Shown here: positions 7,984-55,279 of the stretch, piece by piece
How positions within the stretch are numbered: the first letter of the stretch is position 1
Layout of the letters: each line of letters starts with the position of its first letter
From: an uncultured bacterium
Lineage (GTDB): Bacteria; Patescibacteriota; Minisyncoccia; Moranbacterales; GWC2-37-73
Length of the DNA stretch: 64,000 nucleotides
Assembly: GCA_903851135.1 (NCBI GenBank)
Contig: CAINNK010000045.1
Span: forward strand, 28,289 to 92,288
Direction: 5' to 3'
Notes under the pieces: generated by a model
Seen by the model: the letters and a program-made list of their open reading frames with translations, nothing else
Database searches by the model: none
Told to the model about the DNA's origin: nothing
Position numbers and translations under genes: made by a program

Positions 7984-8002
7984 TACAGGATAGTCCTGTA
8001 AT
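7984..8002 (+). promoter_or_regulatory. Leader hairpin TTACAGGA-TAG-TCCTGTAA just downstream of the promoter
   Basis: Perfect 8-bp stem. A second hairpin (GGTCA-AATGAGA-TGACC) lies a few nt downstream. Confidence 0.3.
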
Positions 8003-8083
8003 GAGGTCAAATGAGATGACCCCGTGCAGGTACTTTGACAATTTTTTTATAACAACAAGCAATTCAAATGTGAGGAGGATATT

Positions 8084-8782: not shown

Positions 8783-8785
8783 AAA

Positions 8786-9577: not shown

Positions 9578-9588
9578 TCCCGCAAAAA

Positions 9589-9630
9589 TTAAAGGCATGT
9601 GAGATAATATTCTTGCATGCCTTTAAAAAT
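9589..9630 (+). terminator. Rho-independent terminator-like hairpin (AAAGGCATG...CATGCCTTTAAAAA)
   Basis: 9-bp stem. Probably a partial (leaky) terminator within the operon. Confidence 0.4.
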
Positions 9631-9717
9631 ATCCAAAAACCTTTTTATATGAATTGCTATTCTTGAAAATTGTTTTTTGTGCTATAATTTTTGTATAAAT
9701 AAAAATCAATTTTTACT

Positions 9718-11217: not shown

Positions 11218-11222
11218 ATATA

Positions 11223-14200
11223 TTGCTGAATAATATGGGCGAATTCAAAGGGCCACAAGCCTGGCAACAATATTTGGAAAATTCAAGCAAGAAAACCAAA
11301 GGCACTCCTGAGCAGGAGGCTGAGTTTGCAAGTGCTGAGAAAAAAACTATCGAAGAATTGTTTTCGGAAACGCAAAGTTTTGATGACATTGTGGCGGCGG
11401 CTGAAGCTGTTGGCGAAATTCAGGATGGCAAAAAAACTTATACGGCCGCAAATCTCGAAACAATTTTTGCAGCGGTAAAGAAAGATAAAAGTGCCTTGAT
11501 TAATGTGCCGGCAGTTTTCGGTTTGAGGGAGGCGGCCAGTAAAGCTTTGGAAGCAATTGCTCGATTGGAGTATGAACGAAACTTGGAAAATTTATTTGGA
11601 GAATTTAAAACCCTGTTTGAGGCTGATGATTTTACTGGAGTTTTTGAAGCAATGAAAGATAATACTGACTTTGATTTGAAAACAAAAAAAACTAAACTAG
11701 AAGATGAATATAAAAAAATAAGCAAAATATTTGAGCCTGAAAAACTGGCTAATCCTGGTGATGGAAAAACTTTAGGAGAAATTCGTGAAATTTCCGAGCA
11801 GGCAAAGGCAATGCTGGACGCCTATAAAACTAAAGCGGATAATGCTCTCGGAAATCAAGGAGTTAAAGAGTCAAAAGAAAAAATTGAGAAAAAATTTGAT
11901 CCGCAAAATATTGAACAATTATTAGCTAGAGGAGAAACCATTAAGGTTAAAATTGTAAGAGCCAATGGTCTTGAAGAGGATTGGTTGATTGATAATATAG
12001 TTGGTTCAGATGTAATTATTAGTAAAGTTGATGTTACCACGGGAAAGTCTTCAACATTAAATGAAAATCTTAGTAATCTGAAGAAGTATAATACCGATAC
12101 TTATAAGGCTAAGAAAGTAGTTGATCCAAAAGATGATGATGCAGAAAGAGCAAAAATTGAGGAGAAGGTCAAATTTGTAGAAAAATCTGAAGAGAAAAAT
12201 AAAGAGAAAAAAACTGAAAAGCAGAAACTAGAGGCTGAGCAAAGGCTGAAATTTGAATCAAAAAAAGCTGAGGTGGAAAAGAATAATGAAGGAAAAGTAA
12301 AACAGGAAAAAGACACTGAGTTAGTGGAGCGACACAAAAAAATTACTGAAACGATCAAAGAACTTGATGATTGCCGAAAAGTTTACTTGGAAAAAGATTA
12401 TGACAAAACGGCAAAATTGATCAAGATTGGAAAATTTTTCAAGGATGGTTTTGGCGAGAAAAAAGATGCTGCTCAAGAATTTAAAGACAACAGAGAAATC
12501 TCACAAAATGATAAGGAAAACAAGGATTATAAGAAGGAATATGACGATAAACTGAGAGAGCTTCAGGAATTGATTTTGGCTGATGCCAAAAAGCGAGATC
12601 TTTCAAATGAAGAATTGGCAAAACTTTATGCCAGTTTCAGAATTGAGCAAAGACTTACGCTCGCCGATGAACATGATAAAGTTAAGGTTGATAAAATAAC
12701 AGGGACTGGCTATGGTTGGGCGAAAAAGGGAATTAAAGATGTAGCTAATTGGTATCAGAAGTTGGATTGGAAATACAAACTTGCAATTGCTGGCGGACTT
12801 ATGGTAACTGGGGCTGGAGTTGCAGGTTTTACATTGGCTGGTGTCACGGTTGCAGGGGCGGGTGCTACTGCTTCATCTGTTTTTGCTGGGGTTTTGACAG
12901 GCAGAAGACTCTTTGGTGGAGTCGCGGCTGGAGTTGGTGCAAAGGGAGGACTCGAAGTTCGAGGGCAAGCGCGAGATCAAAAGGAAATTGAAAGAGAGCA
13001 AAAAAAAATCTTTGAAGAGTTGGAAAAAGTAAAAGAACAGGATAAAAAATATCAAGAACTTGCAGCTAAATTTGATGATATTATTACAAAAGAAGGGCCA
13101 GATGCTCTAAAAAAAATCAAAAATCAAGATCTTCGTCAAAATCTTTCTGCTGCTGCTACGGGGGTTTTTCTTGGATCTGGTTTAGCTGGAGAATTATTTA
13201 AAATGGGTTTTCATGGGGTTGTGGAATACTTTCAATTAGAACATGCATCTGTTGTTGGTGGCGCTAGTGCTCCTCCTTCAGCAGCAGAGCAACTAAAGGC
13301 CATAGAGGAACTTCAAGGAAAAGGAGGTGGAGCTTCATCAGGAAGTCCTGTTATTGAAAAATCTGGCATATTTTCCGGACACCATTCTATGGAAGCCCCA
13401 GCTGTCCCTGGTTCTAGTGAAACCCTGACAATCAACAAGGGTAGTAGTATTGAGGCTACTTTGAGAGATCATTTGGTGAAAAAATTCCCGGATGCGAAAA
13501 ATCAAGGAAAACTGGCGCACCAGATTTGGCATAATTATATGACTGCCAATAAAGTTTCCATTATTGAAAAAGTTGGTCAAGGTGAATATGACAAAATGCT
13601 CAAAGATGGAATGGTTAATGTTAAAGAAGGCACGAAATTGATTTTTGATGAAAGTGACCCTGGCAAATTAAAATTGGTTGATATTGGTGGAAAAATTTCT
13701 CATTTGAATGTGCATGAACACGTGGCTTCGCACGCAGACGCAGCAGCCCAGCCAATTGCGGAAGCAGCTGCTCCAGCAGTTGAGAACGTTGCCAATGATG
13801 CAGCAGGCTCAGTTCCGGTAGCTGACAGTACACCTTATAATATCGGAACAATTCCTTCAGAGCCGTATAATCCATTTGGAAATCCTGCTAGCTACGGAGA
13901 TCACTTAGCGGTGGGTAATGAAGTTGACCCTGAGATTGATACCGCGGGTTTGGTATATGCGGATGGTCATCAAAGAGTAATTAGTTCTACTGAAAAAATT
14001 ATTTTCGAGTTTGTAGATAAACGGCCATTTATTCAGAATAATCATCGAGAAGGTCTACACGCTGTTAGAAAAATATTTTTTCCAAATGCGAGGGAATATA
14101 ATTTACATAAGGGAGCAAATGTTTATGAGACAATGCAGCGTTACAAAGCAAGTTTGTCACCAAAAGGCAGAAGAATTGCGGAGGTACTTTTAAAATCAAA

Positions 14201-37099: not shown

Positions 37100-37696
37100 A
37101 TGAAAAACGATAAGGATTTGGAAAAGATTGCTGATTTTTTGTTCGAAGCTGGAATGCTGGCTAAGACACCGCGAAGCGGATTTTATTTTCTGGGCAGTGG
37201 TGAGCAAAGTGTAGCTGAGCATGTTAACCGAGTTTGCTATGTTGGTTATGTGCTTGCACAGTTGGCTGGCGACGTGGATGAATCTGAAATTTTGAAAATG
37301 TGTTTGTTTCATGATTTCGCTGAAACGCGCGTTTCTGATTTGAACTATGTTCATCAAAAATATACTTCGCGACATGAACATCAGGCAATCGATGATTTGG
37401 CAGCTAGTTTGCCGTTTGGTCAAAAAATCAAGCAGATTATTGGCAGCTATGAAGAATGCACAAGCAAAGAAGCATTGCTGGCAAAGGATGCTGACAACAT
37501 TGAATTTATTTTGGCCTTAAAAGAGCAATGTGATATTGGAAACGAAAGAGCGCAATCCTGGATTAATGCTGCTATGAAAAGACTTAAAACTAAAGAAGGG
37601 AAAATGCTGGCTGACAAAATTATTCAAATTGATTCTGATCGTTGGTGGTTTGGAGACAAGGATGATCAATGGTGGGTCACAAGAAACAAGGAATAA
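37100..37696 (+). CDS. HD-domain phosphohydrolase (YfbR-like)
   Basis: H...HD motif (HVNRV...CLFHDFAETRVSD). Confidence 0.6.
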   Translation: MKNDKDLEKIADFLFEAGMLAKTPRSGFYFLGSGEQSVAEHVNRVCYVGYVLAQLAGDVDESEILKMCLFHDFAETRVSDLNYVHQKYTSRHEHQAIDDLAASLPFGQKIKQIIGSYEECTSKEALLAKDADNIEFILALKEQCDIGNERAQSWINAAMKRLKTKEGKMLADKIIQIDSDRWWFGDKDDQWWVTRNKE

Positions 37697-41738: not shown

Positions 41739-41810
41739 GCCACCCTAGCTCAACGGTAGAGCTACTGTTTTGTAAACAGTAGGTTATCGGTTCAAATCCG
41801 GTGGGTGGCT
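41739..41810 (+). tRNA. tRNA-Thr (anticodon UGU)
   Basis: Hand-folded cloverleaf: acceptor GCCACCC/GGGTGGC, D arm GCTC-AACGGTA-GAGC, anticodon arm ACTGT-TTTGTAA-ACAGT, T arm AGGTT..TTCAAAT..CCGGT wait-checked as GGTTATCGG/TTCAAAT/CCGG. No encoded CCA. Confidence 0.7.
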
Positions 41811-41923
41811 CAAGGAGATGTAGAATGTATTATGTAGAAATGTATGATGTATTTTGTAGTATGTATAATGTATGTGATTTAATGCATGATACTTTATACA
41901 AAATACATAATACTTGAGCCCAG

Positions 41924-42006
41924 GGGTAGATACCAAAGTGGTCAACTGGATCTGGCTGTAAACCAGACGGCTTACGCCTTCGGGGGTTCGAATCCCTCTC
42001 TGCCCA
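41924..42006 (+). tRNA. tRNA-Tyr (anticodon GUA), long variable arm
   Basis: Acceptor GGGTAGA/TCTGCCC (one G-U pair), anticodon arm TCTGG-CTGTAAA-CCAGA, long variable arm, T arm GGGGG-TTCGAAT-CCCTC. Confidence 0.75.
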
Positions 42007-42021
42007 CAAAATTTAAAACAA

Positions 42022-42046
42022 ATGCCCCTCAAGGCATTGGTTTTTA
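42022..42046 (+). terminator. Hairpin AATGCC-CCTCAAG-GCATTGG followed by a T-run
   Basis: Stem plus TTTTT directly after tRNA-Tyr. Confidence 0.4.
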
Positions 42047-42244
42047 ATTTTGTATGATAGTGAAAAGGGATTCGAACCGGCAGCAGTGAGCTAGAAATTT
42101 TTCAGTAGGAAAATTTCGCAGCGAACGCCGACAAATGCGGATGAGCATTTGGCGCTGCCGCGGACAAGGAGTTTGTGAGTGTCGACGAACAAACGATGCG
42201 ACGCTTATTTCTTAACCCAGTTCTTATCACTACCAAATTGTATT

Positions 42245-42317
42245 GCCGTTGTAGCTCAGTTGGTAGAGCACATCCTTGGTAGGGATGAGGTCTGCGGTCC
42301 GATTCCGCACAACGGCT
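42245..42317 (+). tRNA. tRNA-Thr (anticodon GGU)
   Basis: Acceptor GCCGTTG/CAACGGC perfect; D arm GCTC-AGTTGGTA-GAGC; anticodon arm CATCC-TTGGTAG-GGATG; T arm TGCGG-TCCGATT-CCGCA. Confidence 0.75.
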
Positions 42318-42491
42318 CAGGAAATTTAAAAGGTATGGCGCCCCAGCACCAAATTCCGAAAAGAATTTGAGGTTGGATAAAATTTTCTTCACGGAAACGC
42401 CTCCGGCTTAGGTTAGTAATAATTGTAAATTTTAATAAAGAATTGGTGCGGGACGCTCATATTTGTAGCTGTTCGTACCTCACAGACAAAT

Positions 42492-42656
42492 ATGGCGACA
42501 AAGACAAAGGAAAATTTGGTGAAACTGAAATGTAGTGAATGCAAAAACATCACCTATTACACTTCACGCAACAAGAAAATTATCAAGGAAAAACTTGAGC
42601 TCAGCAAGTATTGCAAATTCTGCCGCAAGCACACAAACCACAAGGAAATGAAGTAG
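42492..42656 (+). CDS. rpmG: 50S ribosomal protein L33
   Basis: MATKTKENLVKLKCSECKNITYYTSRNKK...KLELSKYCKFCRKHTNHKEMK matches the L33 zinc-ribbon pattern (C-x2-C...C-x2-C). 54 aa, below the ORF-track cutoff. Confidence 0.8.
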   Translation: MATKTKENLVKLKCSECKNITYYTSRNKKIIKEKLELSKYCKFCRKHTNHKEMK

Positions 42657-42691
42657 TTTATATTGGGCGGGCTTTGCCCGTCTTTATATTT

Positions 42692-42762
42692 GCGGGTGTC
42701 GTATAGTGGTAGTACGTCGGTCTCCAAAACCGTTGGCGGGAGTTCGATTCTCTCCACCCGTG
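42692..42762 (+). tRNA. tRNA-Trp (anticodon CCA)
   Basis: Near-collinear with E. coli tRNA-Trp: anticodon arm TCGGT-CTCCAAA-ACCGT, T arm GGGAG-TTCGATT-CTCTC, acceptor GCGGGTG/CACCCGT (G1-U72 wobble). Follows rpmG. Confidence 0.75.
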
Positions 42763-42823
42763 CAAACTTACAAGGTTCTCAAAAGACCGGTTACCCATGC
42801 TGGGAAAGGCCTTGAAAACCCAG

Positions 42824-43009: not shown

Positions 43010-44587
43010 ATGGAAATTAATTTTATGTCAAAAGAAACAAAAACAACCAACAATAAATCTCTTGAGCAGTGGATCTGGGATTCGGCTTGTGCTATTCGTG
43101 GCGCCAAGGATGCAGGAAAATTCAAGGATTATATTTTGCCACTTATTTTTGTAAAAAGGCTTTGTGATGTTTTTGATGACGAAATAAACAGAATTGCTAA
43201 AGGTGGATCAAGAATTGAAGCACTAAAACGCATTGACGCCGATCATTCACGCGTTCGTTTTTATATCCCAATTCGTCCAAAAAATTCAGAAACGGAAGAT
43301 TCTTGGAATGCAATTCGTTCACTTTCAAGCAATATTGGTGAAGAACTCACGCGCATTATTCGAGAAATTGCTTCGCATAATTCAATTCTTGATGGCGTTA
43401 TTGATACTGTTGATTATAACGCCACCACTCGCGGACAAAGAGAAATCGACGACGATCGTCTTTCAAATCTTATTGAAGCCATAAGTCAAAAAAGACTTGG
43501 ACTTCATGATGTTGAACCCGACATCATTGGTCGCAGTTATGAATATTTGATTCGCAAATTTGCAGAAGGATCAGGACAATCAGCTGGCGAATTCTACACT
43601 CCTCGCGAAGTCGGAATGATCATGGCAAGTATAATGGATGCTGAACCAGGCATGGATGTTTATGATCCAACTTGCGGATCAGCCGGACTTCTTATCAAAT
43701 GCGAATTAGCACTCAAGGAAAAACAAGAAAAGCTAGGCACAAAAACTTTTGCTCCACTTCATCTTTATGGTCAGGAATATACTCCGACAAGTTGGGCTAT
43801 GGCAAAAATGAATATGATTATTCATGACATGGAGGGAGATGTTGAACTTGGCGACACATTCAATAATCCAAAATTCAAAGATGCCACTGGCCACGGAATC
43901 AAAAAGTTTGATTTAGCAGTTGCAAATCCGATGTGGAATCAATCGGGATTTAATGAAGAAATTTATACAAATGACGCCTATCATCGTTTTCCTGCTGGAA
44001 ATCCGGGTGGAAAAGCCGATTGGGGATGGGTGCAACATATTTTTTCAAGCCTAAAAGACAGTGGACGAGCTGCAGTTGTCTTGGACACTGGCGCTGCTTC
44101 GCGTGGCAGTGGCAACGCAAACACCAACAAAGAAAAAGATGTGCGCAAATGGTTCATTGAACAAGATTTGATTGAAGGGATTTTATATCTTCCAGAAAAT
44201 TTGTTCTACAACACCACCGCTCCGGGAATTATTGTTTTCATTAACAAAAACAAATCTGCAAAATTGAAAGATAAAATTTTCCTTATAAATGCTGGTAAAG
44301 AATTCATCAAAGGTGATCCAAAAAATTATGTTTCTGATGAGCAGATGAAAAAAATTGTTGAAGCATATAGCACTAAAAGGGTTATTGATAATTTTAGCGT
44401 GTTTGTCGGCAAAGATGAAATTATTAAAAATGATTATAATATTTCACCTTCACGATATATCCATATTGGCGATGTTGCAGAATATGAAACAGTTGAAAAT
44501 ATTTTAAGTAAACTTGCGGAAGTTGAATTGAAAGCTAAAGCGGCAGATAAAAATTTACAAAAAGTTTTGAAGGAACTTGGATTTTAA
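43010..44587 (+). CDS. hsdM: Type I restriction-modification system, DNA methyltransferase subunit M
   Basis: HsdM N-terminal domain (WIWDSACAIRGAKD...YILPLIFVKRL), SAM motif VYDPTCGSAGLL, catalytic NPxW-type motif VANPMW. Confidence 0.85.
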   Translation: MEINFMSKETKTTNNKSLEQWIWDSACAIRGAKDAGKFKDYILPLIFVKRLCDVFDDEINRIAKGGSRIEALKRIDADHSRVRFYIPIRPKNSETEDSWNAIRSLSSNIGEELTRIIREIASHNSILDGVIDTVDYNATTRGQREIDDDRLSNLIEAISQKRLGLHDVEPDIIGRSYEYLIRKFAEGSGQSAGEFYTPREVGMIMASIMDAEPGMDVYDPTCGSAGLLIKCELALKEKQEKLGTKTFAPLHLYGQEYTPTSWAMAKMNMIIHDMEGDVELGDTFNNPKFKDATGHGIKKFDLAVANPMWNQSGFNEEIYTNDAYHRFPAGNPGGKADWGWVQHIFSSLKDSGRAAVVLDTGAASRGSGNANTNKEKDVRKWFIEQDLIEGILYLPENLFYNTTAPGIIVFINKNKSAKLKDKIFLINAGKEFIKGDPKNYVSDEQMKKIVEAYSTKRVIDNFSVFVGKDEIIKNDYNISPSRYIHIGDVAEYETVENILSKLAEVELKAKAADKNLQKVLKELGF

Positions 44588-45251
44588 ACATATGAACATA
44601 ATTGATCAAAAAATTATAGAAAGAATTGCACAATTGGAAGAAAAGGCCATGAGAGTAAAATCAACTCACACGCCAAATCCTTCAAATGTTATTGGATTTC
44701 CAACTTTGGATAGTGGCTCCTTAAATGAATGGAAGGTGAGCGCTGAGAATTTAATAATTAAAGTTGCCGGAAAAGAAAGCTCATATTATGAAAATTTTAT
44801 CAGAGCAGTTAAAGGTGGCTATCAGAGCAGTGTTGATTCAGGAGTAGGAATTCTTAGAGGTTTAAAAGATGATATTGAACAGGGATTTCTTGTCTCTGTG
44901 CAGGATTTGGTGAAAGCTGAGGTCTTTGCTGATTTTTTGGAGATAGCAGGACATCTGCTTGATAATAATTATAAGGATCCAGCAGCCTCTTTGATTGGAG
45001 CCACTCTTGAAAAAAGTTTAAAAGATATTGCTACAAAAAACTGCATTGCTTTTTCAAAAAGAGACGGCATTGATGATTTGAACAAAAAATTAGCCCAAAG
45101 CAACACCTATAATGCTTTAGTTCAAAAGCAAATAGATGTTTGGCGAACGATTAGAAATTCTGCAGATCATGGAAAATTCAATGATTATACAATTGACGAT
45201 GTTAAAAATATGAAAGCCGGAATTGAAAGCTTTTTAGCTAATTATTTATGA
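44577..45251 (+). CDS. HEPN-domain protein embedded in the type I RM operon
   Basis: 224 aa, overlaps the hsdM stop by 11 nt. C-terminal Rx4H motif IRNSADHG typical of HEPN RNases. Confidence 0.45.
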   Translation: MDFKHMNIIDQKIIERIAQLEEKAMRVKSTHTPNPSNVIGFPTLDSGSLNEWKVSAENLIIKVAGKESSYYENFIRAVKGGYQSSVDSGVGILRGLKDDIEQGFLVSVQDLVKAEVFADFLEIAGHLLDNNYKDPAASLIGATLEKSLKDIATKNCIAFSKRDGIDDLNKKLAQSNTYNALVQKQIDVWRTIRNSADHGKFNDYTIDDVKNMKAGIESFLANYL

Positions 45252-46501
45252 CAGTAAAAAAAGATACAACTAAAGCTTGGAATAAAGTCAAAATTAAAGA
45301 TTTTGGTACTGTTTCTACTGGCACAACTCCAAGTACAAAAAAAGAAGAATACTATGGGGGAGCCTATAAGCTAATATCCCCATCTGATCTTACTGATTCA
45401 AAATATATAACCACGGCACATAAATTCATCTCAGATGAGGGTTTAAAAGTTTCTCGAACTTTGCCGAAAAATTCAGTTTTGGTTGGATGTATTGGAAATG
45501 TTGGAAAAATAGGAATAACAACAGATGAAATTTCAACTTTCAATCAACAAATCAATGCAGTAGTTTGCAATGATAATTTTGATGCAGACTTTGTTTATTA
45601 TTTACTTAGATATAATCGACCATTATTAGAAAGTAAAGCGGCTAAAGTAACTTTGCCAATTTTAAACAAAAACAATTTTGAGAATATAGAATTTGATGTT
45701 CCTGAATTATCAGAACAAAAATTAATAGCAAAAACTCTTTCATCTGTTCAAGATGCAATTATGGGGCAAGAAGAGTTGATTGCCAAACTCAAAGATTTGA
45801 AACAATGCATGATGCAACAGCTTTTTACTCATGGCACAAAAGGTGAAAAAACAAAGATAACTGAAATTGGTGAAATCCCTGAAAGTTGGAAACTTGTGGA
45901 ATTAAAAGAAATCATAAGTTCACTTGCAGCTGGAGTCAGTGTTAATTCATATGATAGGGCTATTAAAGATGGTGAATATGGAATATTAAAAACAAGTTGT
46001 GTTACACTTGGTATTTTTGATTCACGTCAAAATAAAGCCGTCATCGAGAAAGAGGTTGCTAGATTAGCAACACCTCTCAAGTCGGATACTATAGTCATAA
46101 GCAGAATGAATACTCCCGAACTTGTTGGAGCGAATGCATATGTAAAAAATGGTAATCCGTTATTATTTCTCCCTGATCGCTTATGGCAAATAGAATTAAA
46201 AGATTATAATAAACATTCTATGCGCTGGATAGCGTATTATCTGCAGTTGATGTGGCAAAAAGGTATATTTGCAGATATTTCTTCGGGCACGAGTGCAAGT
46301 ATGAAAAATATCACCAAAGCACGATTACTTGGTCTTACTGTGGGCGTAGCTTCTTTTGATGAGCAAAGTTCTATTGCGTTAAGATTGGAGGCAATTGATG
46401 TAAGACTTGAGGTTGTTCAAGAAAAACTATCGAATTATCAAAATCTTTTTAAAACTTTGCTTCATGAATTGCTGAGCCGTAAAAGAAAAATAGCCAAATA
46501 A
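45248..46501 (+). CDS. hsdS: Type I RM specificity subunit S (two target-recognition domains)
   Basis: Duplicated TRD architecture with conserved central and C-terminal helical repeats (LEVVQEKLSNYQNLFKTLLHELLS). Overlaps the upstream gene by 4 nt. Confidence 0.8.
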   Translation: MTVKKDTTKAWNKVKIKDFGTVSTGTTPSTKKEEYYGGAYKLISPSDLTDSKYITTAHKFISDEGLKVSRTLPKNSVLVGCIGNVGKIGITTDEISTFNQQINAVVCNDNFDADFVYYLLRYNRPLLESKAAKVTLPILNKNNFENIEFDVPELSEQKLIAKTLSSVQDAIMGQEELIAKLKDLKQCMMQQLFTHGTKGEKTKITEIGEIPESWKLVELKEIISSLAAGVSVNSYDRAIKDGEYGILKTSCVTLGIFDSRQNKAVIEKEVARLATPLKSDTIVISRMNTPELVGANAYVKNGNPLLFLPDRLWQIELKDYNKHSMRWIAYYLQLMWQKGIFADISSGTSASMKNITKARLLGLTVGVASFDEQSSIALRLEAIDVRLEVVQEKLSNYQNLFKTLLHELLSRKRKIAK

Positions 46502-46502
46502 T

Positions 46503-47204
46503 ATGCCTAATATTTTTCACGAGTTTATATTGCAAATTAGTGGAGTTGCCAATGATACAGCAATTTCCAGAACTGCGCTTTGGACAGCAGGTCTTTTCGT
46601 GGCAACAATATTACTATGGTGGATCGCTAAGGGTCAATTGAGTGGCATAAATAAAACAACAAAGGCGGACTTCATAAAGAAGTTTACTGATGATTTTTTT
46701 AATGAAACTACGAGAGAAATTATTATGCTTTTCGATTATAAAGCACTAAATTTTAGAAGTTCAGAGATAGAATATGGTAAAGACATTTCGACAAAACCAT
46801 TTCCTTATTTCATGATAGACGAAAATATTGTAAAACAATTAAAAATTGACCTCAAAAAGCGAAAAGGAATATTGGATAAGGAATGCTATTCGTCTTTTGA
46901 AATAGATGATTGCTTACTTGGTTTTTTTGAAGATCTTGGTTCTTATGAGAAAAAAGGATTAATTGATATTGAGGGTGTTTATGATGGATTTGATTGGTAT
47001 ATTGATATTATTTGGAATAATTGTGAAATAAAAAATTATGCAAGGAGTCAAGCTGACGATGAAAAAGATGGTGATGATATTTATGAAAATTTTAAATATA
47101 TTTACGAAAAATGCGATTCATATGGCAAAGCAAAGCTAGCTGGTCAATGGATATGGTGGTGGAAAATAAAATGGTGGATTGATAAAATTTTTTTTAAAAT
47201 ATAG
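46503..47204 (+). CDS. Hypothetical single-pass membrane protein with Trp-rich amphipathic C-terminus, embedded between hsdS and hsdR
   Basis: TM segment LWTAGLFVATILLWWIA. C-terminal 20 aa is QWIWWWKIKWWIDKIFFKI. Starts 2 nt after the hsdS stop. Confidence 0.45.
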   Translation: MPNIFHEFILQISGVANDTAISRTALWTAGLFVATILLWWIAKGQLSGINKTTKADFIKKFTDDFFNETTREIIMLFDYKALNFRSSEIEYGKDISTKPFPYFMIDENIVKQLKIDLKKRKGILDKECYSSFEIDDCLLGFFEDLGSYEKKGLIDIEGVYDGFDWYIDIIWNNCEIKNYARSQADDEKDGDDIYENFKYIYEKCDSYGKAKLAGQWIWWWKIKWWIDKIFFKI

Positions 47205-47215
47205 ACAAAAATAAT

Positions 47216-50089
47216 ATGAAACCAACAGAATCAAAATCAGTCCAAGCTAGAATCATAAAATATGCCACTGAAATTGGCTGGCAATATGTTTCGCGAGAGG
47301 AAGTGGAAAAAAGACGTGCTGGAAATCTGCATTTCATTGATGTTTTTCATGAAGAATTATACAAGAAAAATCCTTGGCTTGCCGCAAGTTCAAAAGGTGG
47401 CAATGTTTATACTTTCCCAAATTTTACTTCAAACATTTCAGGCAATCGTGATTTTCTGCTTTTCCTGCGAGGAAGTAGCACAGCTTTTGATAATGTTGAA
47501 AATAGAGAAAAAAATGTTCAGATCATTGATTTCAAAAATCCGCAAAGAAATGTTTTTGAGATTACCGATGAATTTTCATTTTCAAACGGCAGATACACAA
47601 ACAGACAAGACATTGTTTTCTTGATCAATGGCATTCCGGTTATAATGCTTGAATGTAAAAATCTCACAACGAAAGAAGGAATCGAAAAAGCAATTGATCA
47701 AATCAGGAGATACCACAGAGAATCGCCAGAACTATTGGCAGTTGAACAAAGTTTTCTTGCAAGTGAAGGCATGCGTTTGGAATATGGCGTGACTTGGAGC
47801 ACGGTGCGAAGAAATATTTTTTCATGGAAGGGTGACAAAGTTGGAGAATTGGAAAACAAAGTCAAAACATTTTTTAATATTCCCCATGTTCTCAATTTGA
47901 TTGAGAAATATATTATGTTTATTGAAAAAGATGAACAGTTGGTCAAGCTTGTTTTGCGCGAACATCAAGCCAATGCGGTTGAAGCTGTCTTGGGTCGCGC
48001 ACTTGATGAAAACGCCACGCGTGGGCTAGTTTGGCACACGCAAGGCTCTGGCAAAACATTCACAATGATCAAGACTGCGGAGCTTCTTTTTCGCTCAAAT
48101 GAAGCCGACAAACCGACAGTCATCATGATGCTTGATCGCAATGAACTTGAGGGGCAAATGGAGGCCAATTTGACCGCCACGGGGCTCAAGAATGTTCGCA
48201 AAGCCGGAAGTATTAGTGAGCTCGTGGAAATTTTGCGTTCTGACTATCGTGGTATTGTTATCACGATGATTCACAAATTTCGAGGATTGCCAGCTGATTT
48301 GAATTTGCGCAAAAACATTTTTGTTTTAATTGATGAGGCACATCGCACCACTGGCGGAGATTTGGGAACTTTTGTCATGGCAGCTTTGCCAAATGCTACT
48401 TTCATTGGATACACAGGAACACCAGTTGATAAAATTCAGCATGGCAAAGGAACCTTTAAAACCTTTGGAATTCATGATGCCAAAGGTTATCTGCATAAAT
48501 ATTCTATTTCTGAAAGCATTGAAGATGGCACAACTTTGCCGCTATATTATTCTCTTGCGCCTAATGAAATGTTGGTACCAAAGGAAACATTGGAGCGAGA
48601 ATTTTTGAATTTGGCTGATCAACATGGCATTACGGATATTGAAGAACTTAATGCAATTTTGGAGCGAGCAGTGAACACTAGAAATTTTTTAAAAGGACAG
48701 GGCAGAATTGAAAAGGTTGCCAAATTCGTTGCAGAGCATTTCAAGGAGCATATTGAGCCAATGAATTACAAGGCATTTTTGGTAGCAGTTGATCGTGAAG
48801 CCTGCGCGCTTTATAAAAAAGAACTGGATAAATATTTGCCAACCGAGTGGAGCGAAGTTGTTTATACTGGAAATAATAATGATTCTGAACTACTCAAGGA
48901 ATTCACACATGACGAACAAAAAGAAAAAGAAATTCGTCGTGATTTTGCCAAATTCGGAACAACTCCAAAAATTTTGATTGTCACGGAAAAATTACTGACT
49001 GGCTATGACGCACCAATTTTATATTGCATGTATTTGGACAAACCACTTCGCGATCATACACTCCTACAAACAATCGCACGCGTTAATCGTCCATATGAAA
49101 ATGAGGAAATGAAAATGGTAAAACCTCACGGCTTTGTTTTGGATTTTGTGGGTATTTTCGACAAACTTGAAAAAGCGCTGGCATTTGATAGTGATGAAAT
49201 AAATGCCATCGTCAAAGATTTAGCACTATTGAAAGATCGCTTTGTTAAAAAGTTGACTGTGGATGCCAAACAATATTCTGATTTACTTGTCGGACCATTT
49301 GATGATCGACTTGCTGGAATTTTGATTGAATATTTCCGCGATGAAGAGAAGCGCAAAGAATTTTTTAAACTCTACAATGAAATCGAAATGCTCTATGAGA
49401 TTATTTCACCAGATGCATTTCTTCGTCCATATGTTGATGGATTCACAACGCTTTCAGTCATGTTTCAAGTTATAAGAAATGCATATGCAAAGCAAATTTC
49501 AATTGATCGTGAATTTCAAAGAAAAACAGCTGAATTGGTTCAGGAACATATACAAAGCAGTCCTATAAAATTAGGCGCTGAACTGATTAAACTTGATGAG
49601 AAAGGCATTGAAATTATCAAAGAGAAAAACCAACCCGATGAAGTCAAAATCATCAATCTTATCAAGAGTATTCAAAAACTTGCTGAAGAAAAATCAGGTG
49701 ACCCAGTTCTTATCTCCGTCAAAGAAAGAGCAGAAGATATTATGGACGCTTTTTCAAATCGCCAATTAACCACGCAAGAGGCATTGAAAGCTCTTTTGGA
49801 AGTTGCGGATCAGGAAACAAAAAGAATGCAAGAACAAGAAAAAGAAGGAATTTCTAGCACGGCTTGGTTTATACGCGATGTCTTAACAGCTGAAAATATT
49901 ATTGATCAGGATGCAGTGAAAGACATCGAGTCAATAATTGTTCAATATCCAGAATTTGCTTTCAGCGAAAAATTGACTCGCGATATGCGCAATGATATTT
50001 ATGATCGACTTGATTCACTTGGAATTTCACTTGATGATCAGAAGAAAATTACTGACAAAATTATTGCAACACTAGCACAAACAAAATAA
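47216..50089 (+). CDS. hsdR: Type I RM restriction subunit R (nuclease plus SF2 helicase)
   Basis: N-terminal nuclease motif INGIPVIMLECKN, helicase motif I TQGSGKT, motif II LIDEAHR, plus a C-terminal helical domain. Confidence 0.85.
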   Translation: MKPTESKSVQARIIKYATEIGWQYVSREEVEKRRAGNLHFIDVFHEELYKKNPWLAASSKGGNVYTFPNFTSNISGNRDFLLFLRGSSTAFDNVENREKNVQIIDFKNPQRNVFEITDEFSFSNGRYTNRQDIVFLINGIPVIMLECKNLTTKEGIEKAIDQIRRYHRESPELLAVEQSFLASEGMRLEYGVTWSTVRRNIFSWKGDKVGELENKVKTFFNIPHVLNLIEKYIMFIEKDEQLVKLVLREHQANAVEAVLGRALDENATRGLVWHTQGSGKTFTMIKTAELLFRSNEADKPTVIMMLDRNELEGQMEANLTATGLKNVRKAGSISELVEILRSDYRGIVITMIHKFRGLPADLNLRKNIFVLIDEAHRTTGGDLGTFVMAALPNATFIGYTGTPVDKIQHGKGTFKTFGIHDAKGYLHKYSISESIEDGTTLPLYYSLAPNEMLVPKETLEREFLNLADQHGITDIEELNAILERAVNTRNFLKGQGRIEKVAKFVAEHFKEHIEPMNYKAFLVAVDREACALYKKELDKYLPTEWSEVVYTGNNNDSELLKEFTHDEQKEKEIRRDFAKFGTTPKILIVTEKLLTGYDAPILYCMYLDKPLRDHTLLQTIARVNRPYENEEMKMVKPHGFVLDFVGIFDKLEKALAFDSDEINAIVKDLALLKDRFVKKLTVDAKQYSDLLVGPFDDRLAGILIEYFRDEEKRKEFFKLYNEIEMLYEIISPDAFLRPYVDGFTTLSVMFQVIRNAYAKQISIDREFQRKTAELVQEHIQSSPIKLGAELIKLDEKGIEIIKEKNQPDEVKIINLIKSIQKLAEEKSGDPVLISVKERAEDIMDAFSNRQLTTQEALKALLEVADQETKRMQEQEKEGISSTAWFIRDVLTAENIIDQDAVKDIESIIVQYPEFAFSEKLTRDMRNDIYDRLDSLGISLDDQKKITDKIIATLAQTK

Positions 50090-50412
50090 TGAAAAAACAA
50101 AAAATAAAAACGTGGGAATCAAAAAAGGACTTCAAGGAAGAAGTGTATTTGGTTGCAAATAAAGTCAAAGTTAAAATCAAACAAATCACCATTCGCCCAA
50201 TGACGCGCAAATGGGCTAGTTGTTCAACAACTGGATATTTTTCTTTTAATTTGGAACTTCTAGGAATGGATCGCTCACTTGGCGAATATGTGATTTTACA
50301 TGAACTTTTGCATTATTATGTCCCAAATCATAGTAAACTTTGGAAAAGTTTAATGGAGGCTCATATGCCTGATCATGAAAAAAGAAAAGAGAAATTAAAA
50401 AGTTTGAATTAG
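50089..50412 (+). CDS. DUF45/SprT-like zinc metallopeptidase-motif protein (short form)
   Basis: HELLHYYVPNH (HExxH). Overlaps the hsdR stop. YgjP-like genes commonly trail hsdR. Confidence 0.45.
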   Translation: MKKQKIKTWESKKDFKEEVYLVANKVKVKIKQITIRPMTRKWASCSTTGYFSFNLELLGMDRSLGEYVILHELLHYYVPNHSKLWKSLMEAHMPDHEKRKEKLKSLN

Positions 50413-50441: not shown

Positions 50442-51776
50442 CTAAACGACTAAGCTTATCTTTTGATCTTTCAAATATAATTTAGTTTTTAAATATGACA
50501 AAATCTCTCTTTTTTCCTGCATGGTTCCCTCGATCAATACATGCTTGGCATAGTTTTTTAGATCTACTTTCGGGAGTATTACGGTGTCAGCCTTGTCTTG
50601 CCCGAGCATCCTATATGTGAGGTTTTGGTATCGCTCCACCTCTTTTTGCATCTTTTCCCTCGCCCCGATCTTATCAATGGAAACTTTATCTAGTATGCTG
50701 AGTAGCTGATCTAATAAGTCCTCTTCGCGAATGTATGGTTCCTTGCAATCCCTGTTGGCTCCTCGTGTGCAATGGTAGTATACATATCTCCTTACAGTTC
50801 CATTCTTGAATCTTTTGAATTTTTCTTCTGCAGTTATCCCTGAATGGCATGATCCGCATCTGACTATTTTCGTGAAGCTGAATTCTTTAGTTCCTGGTTT
50901 GGATTTTGGTATTCTTGAAATTTGAATTTGAGCTTCTTCAAAAATTTCTTCTGTTAATATTGATTCGTGTTTAGCTTTAAACCAGTTGCCACTTCTTTTG
51001 GGGAATTCAAATTTTCCACAGTAGTATGGATTTGCAAGAATGTTGTAGATGCTGCTAAGCACAATTCTTTTTCCACTCCGAGTTGTGAAATTCATTTCAA
51101 AGCTTAACCATCGAAGTAGCATCCTTCCGCTGTAACCCTGATAGGCAAACTTTTCAAACATTTCTTTTATTATTGGAGCACGCTCAGGATCAAGGTATAT
51201 TTGTTTTTCTCCTTGCACGGATATTCTGTCATTGAGATATCCTAGGGGTGCTTGCCCTGGTCTGATTCCCATGGCGCACTTGGAGCGAAGCCCTCGTTTC
51301 ACGTTGATGCTTCGATTATCATTTTCCAGTTTTGCTTGAGAGCCTAAAATCATCAGGAGAAATTTCTCATTTGGGGAATTGGTGAATACCTGTCCATGCG
51401 TGCGTATTTCAATCAGCGCCCCCTGGTCCATGAGGTCTACAAGAGAGCCTAGATCGCCCGCATTGCGACTCAAGCGATCCGGCGACCATGTAAGGACGCT
51501 ATTGAACATCCCACTGCGGATATCCTTGATTATGCGGTTGAACTCCGGACGCTCCCCGGAAGATTTAGCGCTATGACTTTCTCTGCGAATATCTGTAATA
51601 TTGACGCCATCGCGCTTGGCTTGCTCCAACATTTCATCTACCTGAGAATCGATGGAAAGCGCCTGTTTTTCATCGCTCTCACTCGATTTTCGAGCGTATA
51701 GGCAGCAGCGTATTTCTTGGCTTTTTATGGTCTCCATAGGCTTTATTTTATTGCTTATATCTTCTACAAGCAACAC
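50442..51776 (-). CDS. Large serine recombinase (resolvase catalytic domain plus recombinase domain plus zinc ribbon)
   Basis: N-terminal catalytic region CCLYARKSSESDEKQALSIDSQ (Ser nucleophile context), recombinase domain, C-terminal CGSCH...C zinc ribbon and coiled coil. Confidence 0.7.
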   Translation of the reverse strand: MLLVEDISNKIKPMETIKSQEIRCCLYARKSSESDEKQALSIDSQVDEMLEQAKRDGVNITDIRRESHSAKSSGERPEFNRIIKDIRSGMFNSVLTWSPDRLSRNAGDLGSLVDLMDQGALIEIRTHGQVFTNSPNEKFLLMILGSQAKLENDNRSINVKRGLRSKCAMGIRPGQAPLGYLNDRISVQGEKQIYLDPERAPIIKEMFEKFAYQGYSGRMLLRWLSFEMNFTTRSGKRIVLSSIYNILANPYYCGKFEFPKRSGNWFKAKHESILTEEIFEEAQIQISRIPKSKPGTKEFSFTKIVRCGSCHSGITAEEKFKRFKNGTVRRYVYYHCTRGANRDCKEPYIREEDLLDQLLSILDKVSIDKIGAREKMQKEVERYQNLTYRMLGQDKADTVILPKVDLKNYAKHVLIEGTMQEKREILSYLKTKLYLKDQKISLVV

Positions 51777-51799
51777 AATACCGCTACGGTTGGGGAAGT

Positions 51800-52267
51800 C
51801 TAGGCCTCGGGAGTTGATAACTTTGGCTCCTCGGAATTGTCCTTAGTTATCTCATTTTTTCGATATTTCCCAGTAAATTGTTTTATCGTTGCCCTTAGCT
51901 GGTCAATTAAGTTATTCCTCTCCCCTTTGTAGAGCGCATCAGGCCTATATCTGTATGTATCATGATTATGTGACAAATAAAGTTTTTGCGCTGGCACGCT
52001 TCCTCCGACTGCGCTTTTGATAGTACTTGATTCCACTAAATCGTTGGTAGCTTCTCTGCCTATACTTCTTGCTTCCTCTACTTTTATTGTATACTCCTCA
52101 TTCTTTACCCATCGGGTATAAGTCATTCTACTAATTCCAGCTCTGCTACAAGCGACTCCAATAAGATGAATCTCGCGAAATTTTTCAAGCAAAAGCTCCT
52201 GCTCCTTTTTTTGGCGCATTTCAATAGTATTCTGCCTCTTTGTTTTTTTAACGACAGAATTTTCCAT
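51800..52267 (-). CDS. Hypothetical HTH-containing protein (terminase-small-subunit or transposase-HTH-like)
   Basis: IGVACSRAGISRMTYTRWVKNEE helix-turn-helix. Confidence 0.35.
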   Translation of the reverse strand: MENSVVKKTKRQNTIEMRQKKEQELLLEKFREIHLIGVACSRAGISRMTYTRWVKNEEYTIKVEEARSIGREATNDLVESSTIKSAVGGSVPAQKLYLSHNHDTYRYRPDALYKGERNNLIDQLRATIKQFTGKYRKNEITKDNSEEPKLSTPEA

Positions 52268-52271
52268 AAAA

Positions 52272-53018
52272 TTAATTAACTATTTCGCTCTTTATCCCAG
52301 TCAGTTTCTCAAATCTTGAAATTATTGTATTACAATAACTTTCATCAAGCTCGATCATGTAGCATCTCCGACCAGTCTGCTCGGCTGCTATCAGTGTGCT
52401 ACCAGATCCACCAAATGGATCAAAAATATTTTCGCCTATTTTGCAACTATTGAGAATCATCCTACGTAAAAGCCCGATAGGCTTCATGGTGGGATGTAAA
52501 GTATTTTTTCTTGTTCCGGGATACACCAGTATGCTTTTGTCTTTTGAGCGCATGAATTTATGACTGCCAAACCAGCCATAGGCAATAAGCTCATTTTGTG
52601 GCAAGTAATCTAGCCTCCCAATAATGGAATGCGTTTTTGCCCATACTAATAGCTGTGCGAAATGGCATCCGCAGTCAATCATTCCATCATGGAGTGCGAA
52701 TATTTTTTTGTCGCAGTTGAATATGTACATAGAGTTTTTCTTAGCTAGGTGCGGTTTGAGTATGTTTATCCAGTCGCTGGTGAATTTGCGATATTCTTCG
52801 TCGCTTTGTTCATGGTCGTTTTCAATTGGTTTAAATGTATTTTTATTTCCTGAAAATCCTGAGGTAGTCAATGAAATCGAGTAGGGTGGGTCGCAAAGAA
52901 CGAGATTTATTTTTTCCTCGCCCATCAATTTTTTTACAAGCTCAGGATCGCGGGCGTCGCCCCGAGCAAGGTAGTGATTTCCGAGTTTAATAATTGTTCC
53001 CATTTTTATTTCTTCCAT
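52272..53018 (-). CDS. DNA methyltransferase (N6-adenine/N4-cytosine, DPPY class)
   Basis: LVLCDPPYSI catalytic motif and FDPFGGSGSTLIAAE SAM motif. Start may be the Met at 53003. Confidence 0.75.
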   Translation of the reverse strand: MEEIKMGTIIKLGNHYLARGDARDPELVKKLMGEEKINLVLCDPPYSISLTTSGFSGNKNTFKPIENDHEQSDEEYRKFTSDWINILKPHLAKKNSMYIFNCDKKIFALHDGMIDCGCHFAQLLVWAKTHSIIGRLDYLPQNELIAYGWFGSHKFMRSKDKSILVYPGTRKNTLHPTMKPIGLLRRMILNSCKIGENIFDPFGGSGSTLIAAEQTGRRCYMIELDESYCNTIISRFEKLTGIKSEIVN

Positions 53019-53027
53019 ATTATTTTT

Positions 53028-54329
53028 TTATTTTCTAATTAATTGAGCCTTCTCTCCTGTCAAAGTCTCCCATCTTTTCACAATGAGATCGCAAAAGACA
53101 GGAGAAATTTCCACCGCAAGACATCTGCGTTTCATTTGTTCGCAAGCAATAATAGAGACTCCTGATCCGCAGAACAAATCTAAAATCACGTCATTTATTT
53201 TTGTGCATCTTCTGATTGGTTTTTCTAATAAATCAAGGGGTTTTTCGCAGGGGTGCGTGTAATCTTTTCCGGTCACTCTTTTCGCGATCCATATATCAAG
53301 CATGTCCATAATTTCATCCACCGCATTGTTCCCAGATCCCACAGATTTATTTAAAATCTCATTAAGATTTTTATCTGAATTTGAAAGATAAGGTGAACCT
53401 ATCGTCCCATAGCAACAACTTTCGGTCGCTTTGTTAAAAGCCACGCGAGGAGTCATAGAAAAATTATTCTTAATCCAGATTAAGGTTCTTCTGTTTTTTA
53501 TTCCAAGTTCGCGAAAAATATCCTGAACAACTGAGGTTCCGCACTGATCGCTCCATTCAAAAACGTGTACATCCTCTTTTGCGAGAGTAAGTCCATTGGA
53601 GATTACTTTTTTTAAAAACGCTTTGTAATCTTCTGGCGATCTATTGTCATCAACTTTACCTCCATATTTGCCTGCAGTTGAAATACCGTTATTGTAGTCC
53701 AAGTTAATGTTGTAATTAGCATCTAGATATAGCATGGAAACTTCTTTGGCCTTGGTAAGCTCGGCGACAACGGCAAGATCTGAGGAATCATTGCAGATTA
53801 GGACGTGCCTACCAAGGATATATTTATCTCCGAGTTTTGTTTTTGGCTCAACTATTTTCTTGATTTCACGTTCGACCTGAAATTCATCATCGTTTATTTC
53901 CAGCTCGCTGTCCCAAATGCTAGATAAATCGCCGTCGTCAAAACCAGTCTCTAGAAGAAAAGATGTATCAAATTCTCTTAAAAGCTCATAACTCCAATCG
54001 CCATTTACACGATTCAATCGGAGATTTAAAGCCTTTTCCTTTTCGATGTCTGGAATATTAAGGTAAATAGCTGGAACCCTGGTTATTCCCATTTTCTTGG
54101 CAACGTGAGTTCTAAACGAGCCCCCAATAATTATATTTCTACGACTCTTAGCGCTGTTGAGCAAAACTGGATCAGAAAATCCATGTTCCTCTAGGCTTTT
54201 TCGTAAATTATTTTCGGCAGCTGTGTCCCAATGTCTAGGGTTATAGGATGGGGACTTGATCGTGGTAATATCCACATACTCAATGCGCAAGTCTTCACTT
54301 GCGACTTTTTCTTCTGTGACGTTTGTCAT
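53028..54329 (-). CDS. ParB-like N-terminal domain fused to DNA methyltransferase
   Basis: ParB/Srx-like N-terminus (PRHWD, GGSFRTH) and C-terminal SAM motif LDLFCGSGVSIIACE. Confidence 0.7.
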   Translation of the reverse strand: MTNVTEEKVASEDLRIEYVDITTIKSPSYNPRHWDTAAENNLRKSLEEHGFSDPVLLNSAKSRRNIIIGGSFRTHVAKKMGITRVPAIYLNIPDIEKEKALNLRLNRVNGDWSYELLREFDTSFLLETGFDDGDLSSIWDSELEINDDEFQVEREIKKIVEPKTKLGDKYILGRHVLICNDSSDLAVVAELTKAKEVSMLYLDANYNINLDYNNGISTAGKYGGKVDDNRSPEDYKAFLKKVISNGLTLAKEDVHVFEWSDQCGTSVVQDIFRELGIKNRRTLIWIKNNFSMTPRVAFNKATESCCYGTIGSPYLSNSDKNLNEILNKSVGSGNNAVDEIMDMLDIWIAKRVTGKDYTHPCEKPLDLLEKPIRRCTKINDVILDLFCGSGVSIIACEQMKRRCLAVEISPVFCDLIVKRWETLTGEKAQLIRK

Positions 54330-54436
54330 AGTTTTTTACTTAAAATTAATTAATTGCTTCCGCGCCAAAAAATGGAGACGCTTTTGGCATCTCCATTAAA
54401 TCATGCTATTTTTTTGTACTACACGGTTTTATGACA

Positions 54437-55279
54437 CTATAAAACCGTAAACCTTTTTTGCCTTAAATCCTTCAAATTTCTCTTTATTTTTGGAATCTCA
54501 TTTTCCCTTTTTGCGCTTCCTAAAATTCTTTCGGCTATATCCCTATTGGTTAATTTGTACGATGTATTATCAGCGTAATCGTATTCTATTTCGCCAGATA
54601 ATTTTTCAATCCCTATTCCAGTTTCAATGTTAGCTGTATTTTTGTATGAAGGTAGCTTCTTGCCAAAAATATTATTAACATCTTCCTTAATTAGGCATAG
54701 ATCTCCATCTGTAAGTTTTGTATAAATATGCAAAGTGACAAATTTAGCATCCTGTATTTTGGTTGATGCGTCAGTGACGATGGCATAATTTGATCCTTGC
54801 GAAACCAACTTGTCATAAAAGAGATATTGATGGATAGAAAAAGCGTAGTTAGCTGGCAGATTAAATTTTTTGATAATGTCCTCTTTCCCTTGGGCTAATA
54901 AATTTGCTGGAATTTTGAGGTGTAATTTTTTCAAAAGAGCCATTGCTTCGAAACGTGATATTTTTTTAGCTTTCTGCTTTTCGCTTATATCTCTTAATTC
55001 TTTAATGAAATATCTGTTTTGACTAGCTTCGTCTGATTTTTTTAAAAATTCACCATACCATTTAGCATGGTCTTGATAGGTATTGTCACCAATAAATCCT
55101 TCGGCTGGCATGTCTAATGCAATTCGCAGTTTCTGTATTTCCTTTTTAAATTTAGGATATGAAACAAGAAGACTGAGATTGTCTCTATTTTTAATAATAG
55201 AATCTTGCAAATATGCCGGAATTGATTCTTTCAGTTTGTTGGATTTTTTAGGTTTTCTTACTTTACTTTTGGTTTTCAT
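54437..55279 (-). CDS. Hypothetical protein (280 aa), basic N-terminus
   Basis: ORF with downstream terminator hairpins at 54370-54400 and 54405-54440 on the minus strand. Confidence 0.4.
   Translation of the reverse strand: MKTKSKVRKPKKSNKLKESIPAYLQDSIIKNRDNLSLLVSYPKFKKEIQKLRIALDMPAEGFIGDNTYQDHAKWYGEFLKKSDEASQNRYFIKELRDISEKQKAKKISRFEAMALLKKLHLKIPANLLAQGKEDIIKKFNLPANYAFSIHQYLFYDKLVSQGSNYAIVTDASTKIQDAKFVTLHIYTKLTDGDLCLIKEDVNNIFGKKLPSYKNTANIETGIGIEKLSGEIEYDYADNTSYKLTNRDIAERILGSAKRENEIPKIKRNLKDLRQKRFTVL

Follow-up and report, generated by a model that had tools for sequence, protein, structure and literature searches.

The 64,000-nucleotide (nt) stretch of DNA analysed here, hereafter the window, comes from an uncultured bacterium of the Patescibacteriota. 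On its plus strand, positions 43010-50412 hold six tightly packed genes: a type I restriction-modification (RM) operon in which two guest genes are embedded. The order is hsdM, the gene of a HEPN protein that we call HEPN219, hsdS, the gene of a DUF4760-like membrane protein, hsdR and a short DUF45 gene. This order and the coordinates had been proposed from the letters and open reading frames (ORFs) alone (the sequence-only reading below); all the ORFs are present on the plus strand, and Pfam, NCBIfam and PADLOC between them confirm the three RM subunits and the DUF45 domain.

The three restriction-modification subunits are readily recognized. hsdM (43025..44587) encodes a type I methyltransferase subunit of 520 amino acids (aa) with the Pfam domains HsdM_N (PF12161, E=1e-18) and N6_Mtase (PF02384, E=7e-89), matched by PADLOC MTase_I at E=5e-162. 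Gene callers choose the start at 43025; an in-frame ATG further upstream, at 43010, would give 525 aa. The specificity subunit of 417 aa, encoded by hsdS (45248..46501), has two target-recognition domains, seen as two stretches of Methylase_S (PF01420, E=5e-32), and a full-length match to PADLOC Specificity_I. The product of hsdR (47216..50089), the restriction and translocase subunit of 957 aa, combines the N-terminal nuclease HSDR_N (PF04313), a superfamily 2 (SF2) translocase (SWI2_SNF2 and ResIII, PF18766/PF04851) and a T1R_D3-like region (PF22679); it scores 482 bits against NCBIfam TIGR00348, whose cut-off is 284.55. PADLOC type I models thus match HsdM, HsdS and HsdR alike.

All junctions are tight. 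A 4-nt gap separates hsdM from the HEPN gene, which overlaps hsdS by 4 nt; hsdS is followed after 1 nt by the membrane-protein gene and this, after 11 nt, by hsdR, which overlaps the DUF45 gene by 1 nt. No convincing terminator was found inside the operon, and promoter-like sites within it do not exceed their frequency in shuffled sequence. The co-transcription suggested by the sequence-only reading is borne out by these short distances, none above 11 nt, and by the lack of a convincing internal terminator, which together support the integrity of the operon. The same locus was recovered on 18 contigs that stem from several samples and is therefore not an assembly artefact. Judged from its sequence, the operon is an intact, co-transcribed type I RM system, predicted to be functional.

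HEPN219, a HEPN protein between hsdM and hsdS

The first guest gene (44592..45251) had been read as encoding 224 aa, from a TTG codon at 44577. Homologues and gene callers agree on the ATG at 44592 instead, which gives 219 aa, and the TTG is probably unused. Only the length had to be revised, the HEPN identity being upheld. The first 100 or so residues of the protein form a helical domain, which matches no named family, and a HEPN domain makes up the C-terminal part. We found 108 homologues. An alignment of 49 sequences, at 28-76% identity, leaves R188, A191, H193 and E140 invariant, and the protein carries the motifs Rx4H (R188-H193) and Ex3[KR] (E140-K144); IRNSADHG is present in the 44577-45251 ORF. 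Rx4-6H together with Ex3[KR] is the signature of metal-independent RNase catalysis in HEPN domains (PMC3710099). The AlphaFold model, at a predicted local distance difference test (pLDDT) score of 93, is confident and all-helical, and has the four-helix up-down arrangement of the HEPN fold.

In profile searches the window protein itself stays below threshold: DUF4145 (PF13643) reaches 20.0-20.2 bits where 23.1 are required, and HEPN gives E=0.016. It is at the level of the family, together with the motifs, that its classification finds support. Pfam HEPN matches 22 of 49 family members; others match RiboL-PSP-HEPN, DUF4145 or AbiV, with DUF4145 reaching E<=0.01 in just 5 of the 49. There is also a weak match to the N-terminus of the HsdR model NF008521 (E=0.023). 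PADLOC-DB v2.0.0, including its HEC and PDC candidates, yields no match at E<=1, PHROGs has none above threshold, and a profile search with the family against PDB sequences gave nothing meaningful. Scans with the Pfam library detect neither a P-loop domain nor an ATPase match, in agreement with the sequence-only reading, which had seen no counterpart of the ABC-ATPase domain of the anticodon nuclease PrrC. Altogether, HEPN219 is a real HEPN protein and probably a catalytic one, a predicted metal-independent endoRNase.

The family is widespread, with 249 loci among GTDB species representatives from many phyla and from one archaeon. We annotated the neighbourhoods of the best 80 of these loci. 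A type I hsdM adjoins the HEPN219 homologue in just 5 of them; the other RM-adjacent loci carry a different type of RM system, a methyltransferase-endonuclease (mod-res) pair, and most of the remaining loci are solitary. Proximity to RM genes follows relatedness. At 45% identity or more, an RM gene lies within four genes in 9 of 17 loci; L014, where ORF calling overlooked it, makes 10. Among relatives below 45% the count is 3 of 63. Two architectures recur: the HEPN219 gene stands directly after hsdM in type I loci, or, in several Patescibacteria, directly before a pair of N6_N4_Mtase and ResIII/endonuclease genes. The mod-res type of pairing is seen in the patescibacterial loci L016, L017, L018 and L026 (about 8001-12700 in each).

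Clustering of the genes within four positions on either side, at 78 loci, revealed no recurrent partner or antitoxin. A HEPN-MNT pair is equally absent, with no nucleotidyltransferase gene in the operon and none recurring across these 78 loci. Among 143 immediate neighbours scanned in bulk with Pfam, RM genes are a minority (N6_N4_Mtase 6, N6_Mtase 4, Mrr_cat 2, ResIII 2, Methylase_S 2), the rest being housekeeping genes, transposases and others. In locus L013 (8001-13106), a homologue with 55% identity lies two genes from a 793-aa ABC-type ATPase matching AAA_13 (E=9e-129), the family to which the ATPases of PrrC/RloC-type proteins belong; the neighbourhood may reflect a split arrangement, or be coincidental.

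A membrane protein with a Trp-rich tail between hsdS and hsdR

The second guest gene (46503..47204) encodes a DUF4760-like protein of 233 aa. Behind a single N-terminal transmembrane (TM) helix, at about residues 24-42, come a helical domain that is acidic and free of His, in which the stretch EIDDxLLGxFED is conserved, and a conserved, cationic, Trp-rich tail (about residues 213-233). The last 28 residues hold 3-6 Trp and 6-10 Lys or Arg. The tail is too polar to span a bilayer; its partitioning into the membrane interface is very favourable (-9.6 kcal/mol on the Wimley-White scale). The protein is thus predicted to be anchored by its N-terminal helix, with the tail in the membrane interface. 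These calculations bear out the Trp-tailed membrane protein that the sequence-only reading had placed between hsdS and hsdR.

No direct match exists in Pfam, NCBIfam, PADLOC-DB v2.0.0 (E<=1) or PHROGs. Homologues are nonetheless numerous: a word-indexed search finds 15, and an exhaustive profile search finds 481 cluster representatives at E<=1e-3. The Pfam family DUF4760 (PF15956) is matched by 37 of 94 profile-found relatives, with a best E of 2.4e-6, whereas the window protein remains unmatched even at E<=10. Relatives share with DUF4760 the N-terminal TM helix and the helical domain behind it; the window protein differs in falling below every Pfam threshold, and the Trp-rich cationic tail characterizes its close subfamily. 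The literature on DUF4760 is effectively empty, with one passing mention in what could be searched. An AlphaFold2 model of the protein reaches a pLDDT of 79, and neither solved structures nor a PDB profile search gave a convincing fold match. A BFVD search returned a single phage protein without a name (E=3.6e-4) and was otherwise uninformative.

We distinguish nine contexts of the membrane family. Three of them are type I operons (the window, L003 and L007), and there the gene always lies in the interval between hsdS and hsdR. Elsewhere it is found behind a mod-res pair that DUF2130 and DUF2726 accompany, after an EcoRI-type methylase with GmrSD nearby, in an integrase-bearing island of small ORFs, or beside a rolling-circle Rep and a UvrD helicase; a distant relative sits between a caspase-like peptidase and DUF4062, and the ninth context is one of housekeeping genes. 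In the other two type I operons, the interval between hsdM and hsdS holds Ymh (L007) or HEPN_Cthe2314 plus NYN (L003), that is, again a HEPN-type gene, of a family different from HEPN219.

The type I operon of L003 (1862-12574) carries eight embedded genes, an extreme loading of both intervals. NYN, three small unknowns and HEPN_Cthe2314 lie between hsdM and hsdS; DUF6650, the DUF4760-like protein and a 233-aa unknown lie between hsdS and hsdR.

Scans of viral contigs recovered just 9 distant HEPN loci and no relative of the membrane family. Neither cargo family is phage-typical, and such a scarcity of relatives does not support a phage origin of the cargo.

Two cargo slots in a clade of type I operons

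To place the operon among its relatives, we annotated the gene order in 80 metagenomic sister loci whose HsdM is 61-84% identical to that of the window. Their common order is M, 0-3 genes, S, 0-5 genes, R and DUF45. Extra same-strand genes occupy the M-S junction in 20 of 61 loci and the S-R junction in 22 of 30. Of the loci, 30 have all of M, S and R; cargo sits in both slots in 10 of these and in neither in 8. Cargo-free sisters with a complete or near-complete M-S-R backbone are L099, L121, L153, L154 and L161.

What fills these slots is highly variable. The 65 sister cargo proteins, in about 40 loci, fall into 45 unrelated clusters, and the cargo differs in every one of the four closest sisters. 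Most of the identifiable cargo consists, by sequence match, of known defence genes: AbiLi, AriA, GajA-like, OLD-family ATPase-TOPRIM proteins, SIR2, NACHT, KAP, RhuM, GmrSD_N, SMODS and HerA. Also present are MNT and Fic, a T5orf172/GIY-YIG-like domain, DUF3800 with WYL, an SDH-protease and Mrr pair and a PHP-ABC ATPase. Some cargo is an IS200-type transposase (Y1_Tnp). Several sister proteins match the candidates HEC-01A, PDC-S02, PDC-M05A and PDC-S05 of Payne et al., so the PADLOC library used here does hold HEC and PDC models. The commonest cargo of the M-S slot is a protein of about 433-522 aa, present in six loci (L122, L123, L127, L130, L155 and L157); its 522-aa representative in L123 combines DUF4062, HATPase_c_4 and Fic-like_C and has weak matches to SIR2-pAgo-associated PADLOC models.

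Neither HEPN219 nor the DUF4760-like protein occurs in any of the 80 sister operons. The sequence-only reading had allowed that both might be conserved type I subunits, an objection that the survey does not sustain: the slots around hsdS hold varied, mostly defence-related cargo. Its premise that canonical type I operons contain hsdR, hsdM and hsdS only was too strong, for this clade and in general, as embedded genes are frequent in type I RM systems (Payne et al. 2024).

The backbone itself is stable. M, R and DUF45 diverge together, from 84/80/80% down to about 62/55/54% identity, and HsdS is 24-55% identical to the sister HsdS proteins, as expected of a specificity subunit. The last gene of the operon (50089..50412) encodes a mini-YgjP/DUF45 protein of 107 aa with an HExxH motif, here HELLH. 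It scores 93.9 bits against the Pfam YgjP-like profile (cut-off 26) and covers its positions 103-206 of 207, the C-terminal half only. In 22 of 23 sister loci with a complete hsdR, the next gene encodes a homologue of about 105 aa. Given this constancy and its co-divergence with M and R, the mini-DUF45 gene is a constant part of the backbone and not cargo, nor the trailing addition it had first been taken for. We found essentially no literature on DUF45 together with RM systems.

The M-S and S-R junctions therefore behave as miniature defence islands, whose guests are replaced far faster than the backbone diverges. Repeats flanking the cargo were sought, with chance-level matches only. In the window, G+C content is 30-34% in the cargo and hsdS, versus 37.5% in hsdM and hsdR. 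We considered whether the low-G+C centre, from the HEPN gene through hsdS to the membrane-protein gene, is a swapped cassette and did not adopt it; the difference is real but modest, and is kept as weak support.

Around the operon, the window offers further features. Four tRNA genes (Thr, Tyr, Thr and Trp) lie upstream, at 41739-42763. Downstream, on the minus strand at 50442-55279, there are a large serine recombinase (phrog_95 integrase), a small-terminase-like helix-turn-helix gene, two phage-type N6/N4 DNA methyltransferases, one of them fused to ParB_N, and a 280-aa unknown; yceG comes next. This stretch of about 12.5 kb, RM operon included, looks like a genomic island or the remnant of an element; a search for att-type direct repeats bounding it gave chance-level matches only. 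A motif of about 12 nt, AAATTAATTTTA, occurs just 5' of the start codons of hsdM (43015-43033) and of two minus-strand island genes (52260-52286 and 54334-54360; repeat families D7 and I19), and could represent a shared promoter or translation-initiation element, or else an AT-rich match due to chance. Some 6 kb upstream of the operon, public gene calls place a PBECR2/PBECR3-domain gene, up to about 36858, and an HD_3 phosphohydrolase (37100-37696); PBECR2/PBECR3 is a Barnase/EndoU/colicin-like nuclease family.

Two guests and their possible relation to restriction

HEPN genes in RM operons are not new. Anantharaman et al. 2013 (PMC3710099) described them and proposed a "multi-pronged defense" by analogy with PrrC-PrrI; their R-M-linked families include DUF4145, Ymh, Abi2/AbiD/F, AbiU2, AbiJ and ApeA. 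HEPN219 resembles these in its Rx4-6H and Ex3[KR] motifs and in its place inside an R-M operon; it differs in its N-terminal domain, which by Pfam scan is none of the named AbiJ-NTD-type domains. On a larger scale, Payne et al. 2024 (bioRxiv 10.1101/2024.01.29.577857) found embedded genes to be frequent in type I RM, BREX, DISARM and Hma systems and, by "guilt-by-embedding", distilled 17,432 non-redundant embedded genes into 145 candidates, several of them validated. According to the same study, embedded genes also exist un-embedded elsewhere, PrrC being unusual in that it is almost always embedded in type I RM. One of their systems, HEC-08, is a single-gene HEPN defence embedded in Hma that needs the histidine of Rx4-6H. 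In contrast to HEPN219, which the PADLOC HEC-08 models do not match, it is built of an N-terminal DUF3644 HEPN domain and C-terminal zinc-ribbon-like domains.

A proven defence embedded in a type I RM cluster is TgvAB of the V. cholerae island VPI-2, which works independently of HsdR activity (PMC11411939); the rlo genes within C. jejuni hsd loci are cited in that article as well. The window and its clade share with these cases the same-strand genes nested among hsd genes and the diversity of cargo. They differ in three respects: the two guest families of the window match no PADLOC model, HEC and PDC included; the clade has two slots, often filled together (10 of 30 loci); and it has a constant mini-DUF45. 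The sequence-only reading had not recognized the arrangement as a described one, which was mistaken at the level of its kind, proposed in 2013 and systematically mined in 2024. The architecture is of a known kind, and what is new is the identity of both passengers.

The explanation we favour, and consider reasonably probable, is that of a predicted working type I RM operon carrying two autonomous, co-expressed guests, one an abortive-infection (Abi)-type HEPN RNase and the other a membrane-associated protein. Its clade takes up unrelated guests at the M-S and S-R junctions, the two hot spots of exchange. HEPN219 would act as an autonomous, single-gene second line of defence of the abortive-infection type, with its N-terminal helical domain as a regulatory or sensing part; the DUF4760-like protein would most likely be an independent defence or exclusion candidate. 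Through embedding, the guests would be transferred and expressed together with the RM system, and physical control by HsdMSR would not be required. From their sequences and genomic contexts we infer RNase activity for HEPN219, a defence role for either guest and the autonomy of both. The known defence genes in the same slots of sister operons make such a role reasonable to expect. Autonomy is supported by the lack of a recurrent neighbour of HEPN219, in a family of 249 loci, and by the varied contexts of the membrane family, which range from type I, type III-like and type II-MTase/GmrSD to mobile-element and housekeeping settings; the strict same-strand, overlapping arrangement favours selected co-expression.

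Several observations weigh against this explanation. A solitary active HEPN RNase would need restraint, and none is identified for the RNase predicted here. The close relatives of HEPN219, at 45% identity or more, are RM-adjacent in about 10 of 17 loci, so that some coupling with restriction is possible. The soluble domain of the membrane protein has no recognizable catalytic or sensor fold, and one of its homologues sits amid housekeeping genes. Finally, guilt-by-embedding is a statistical argument and no proof for a single gene.

Coupling of this sort is the core of a guard mechanism like that of PrrC, a HEPN-type RNase encoded within a type Ic hsd operon (EcoprrI) and activated by T4 Stp (PMC3710099). 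HEPN219, perhaps with the membrane protein, would be held latent by HsdMS(R) and released once a phage anti-restriction factor disables the enzyme, as in the RM-guarded abortive-infection module of the sequence-only reading. Beyond the placement of both genes within type I hsd operons, the idea gains from the constant position of RM-linked HEPN219 beside a methyltransferase gene: after hsdM in the window, L011, L012, L014, L020 and L023, and directly before mod in L016, L017 and L026. About 10 of 17 close relatives are RM-adjacent, as said, and no antitoxin or other regulator is encoded nearby, by neighbour clustering. DUF4145-type HEPN domains are moreover found fused to restriction endonuclease/SF2-helicase proteins (PMC3710099), and HEPN219 itself weakly matches the HsdR model NF008521. 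The differences from PrrC are nonetheless substantial. HEPN219, with its 219 all-helical residues, lacks the ABC-ATPase domain that is fused to the nuclease in PrrC and RloC and regulates it; its gene lies between M and S, that of PrrC between S and R. PrrC is nearly exclusive to type I RM, whereas the HEPN219 family is hsdM-adjacent in 5 of its best 80 loci, and relatives below 45% identity are RM-adjacent in 3 of 63. A specific protein-protein latch is less to be expected in a family that pairs with at least two unrelated RM architectures, and the absence of HEPN219 from all 80 sister operons means that the RM system is independent of it. The defence role stands as reasonable; the latch, which this distribution weakens, we regard as rather unlikely.

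The guests could instead be selfish or hitch-hiking accessory genes, such as an addiction-type toxin by which the island is stabilised or mobile-element cargo, lodged in permissive junctions of a horizontally mobile RM operon. The island-like stretch of about 12.5 kb from tRNA-Trp to yceG, with a large serine recombinase and phage-type methyltransferases beside the operon, is in keeping with this, as are the Y1_Tnp transposase among the sister cargo, the membrane-protein homologues beside a rolling-circle Rep and in an integrase-bearing island, and the lower G+C of cargo and hsdS. Yet the same slots hold, as far as their cargo can be identified, mostly genuine defence genes, and mobility genes make up a few per cent of embedded genes (3.1% of those in Hma systems; Payne et al. 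2024). An addiction module would have a cognate antitoxin, which was not found, and selected co-expression is better suited to the strict overlapping layout; we hold this explanation for unlikely. Least probable, and very improbable in our view, is that the guests assist or regulate the restriction enzyme itself: a membrane tether at the site of DNA entry, an RNA-binding or regulatory HEPN protein, and a DUF45 peptidase controlling HsdR. The EcoKI enzyme is reported to associate with the membrane. In the window and in L007 hsdR comes immediately after the membrane-protein gene, in L003 with one gene in between, and its constant companion in the clade is the mini-DUF45. Against such a role, neither guest belongs to any sister operon, five of which are entirely cargo-free; type I genes are lacking in six of the nine contexts of the membrane family; and the invariant catalytic HEPN motifs suit an enzyme better than a passive partner.

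The value of the locus is practical: it contributes two compact, single-gene, widespread and uncharacterised candidate families that are absent from current defence catalogues and directly testable. The clade, with its unusually rich M-S and S-R slots, is a focused place to mine defence genes, and it is suited to studying the exchange of cassettes between the conserved hsdM and hsdR arms. A bolder proposal, which we find doubtful, is that the close HEPN219 subfamily acts as a minimal, ATPase-less "restriction guardian" for more than one RM architecture, with the Trp-tailed protein as a membrane-perturbing abortive-infection effector, the whole forming a three-layer module. The N-terminal helical domain would then sense that methyltransferase or restriction function has been lost, or that an anti-restriction protein is present, whereupon the RNase would fire. 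If HEPN219 were indeed regulated by the status of the RM system, without an ATPase domain, the PrrC paradigm would be extended.

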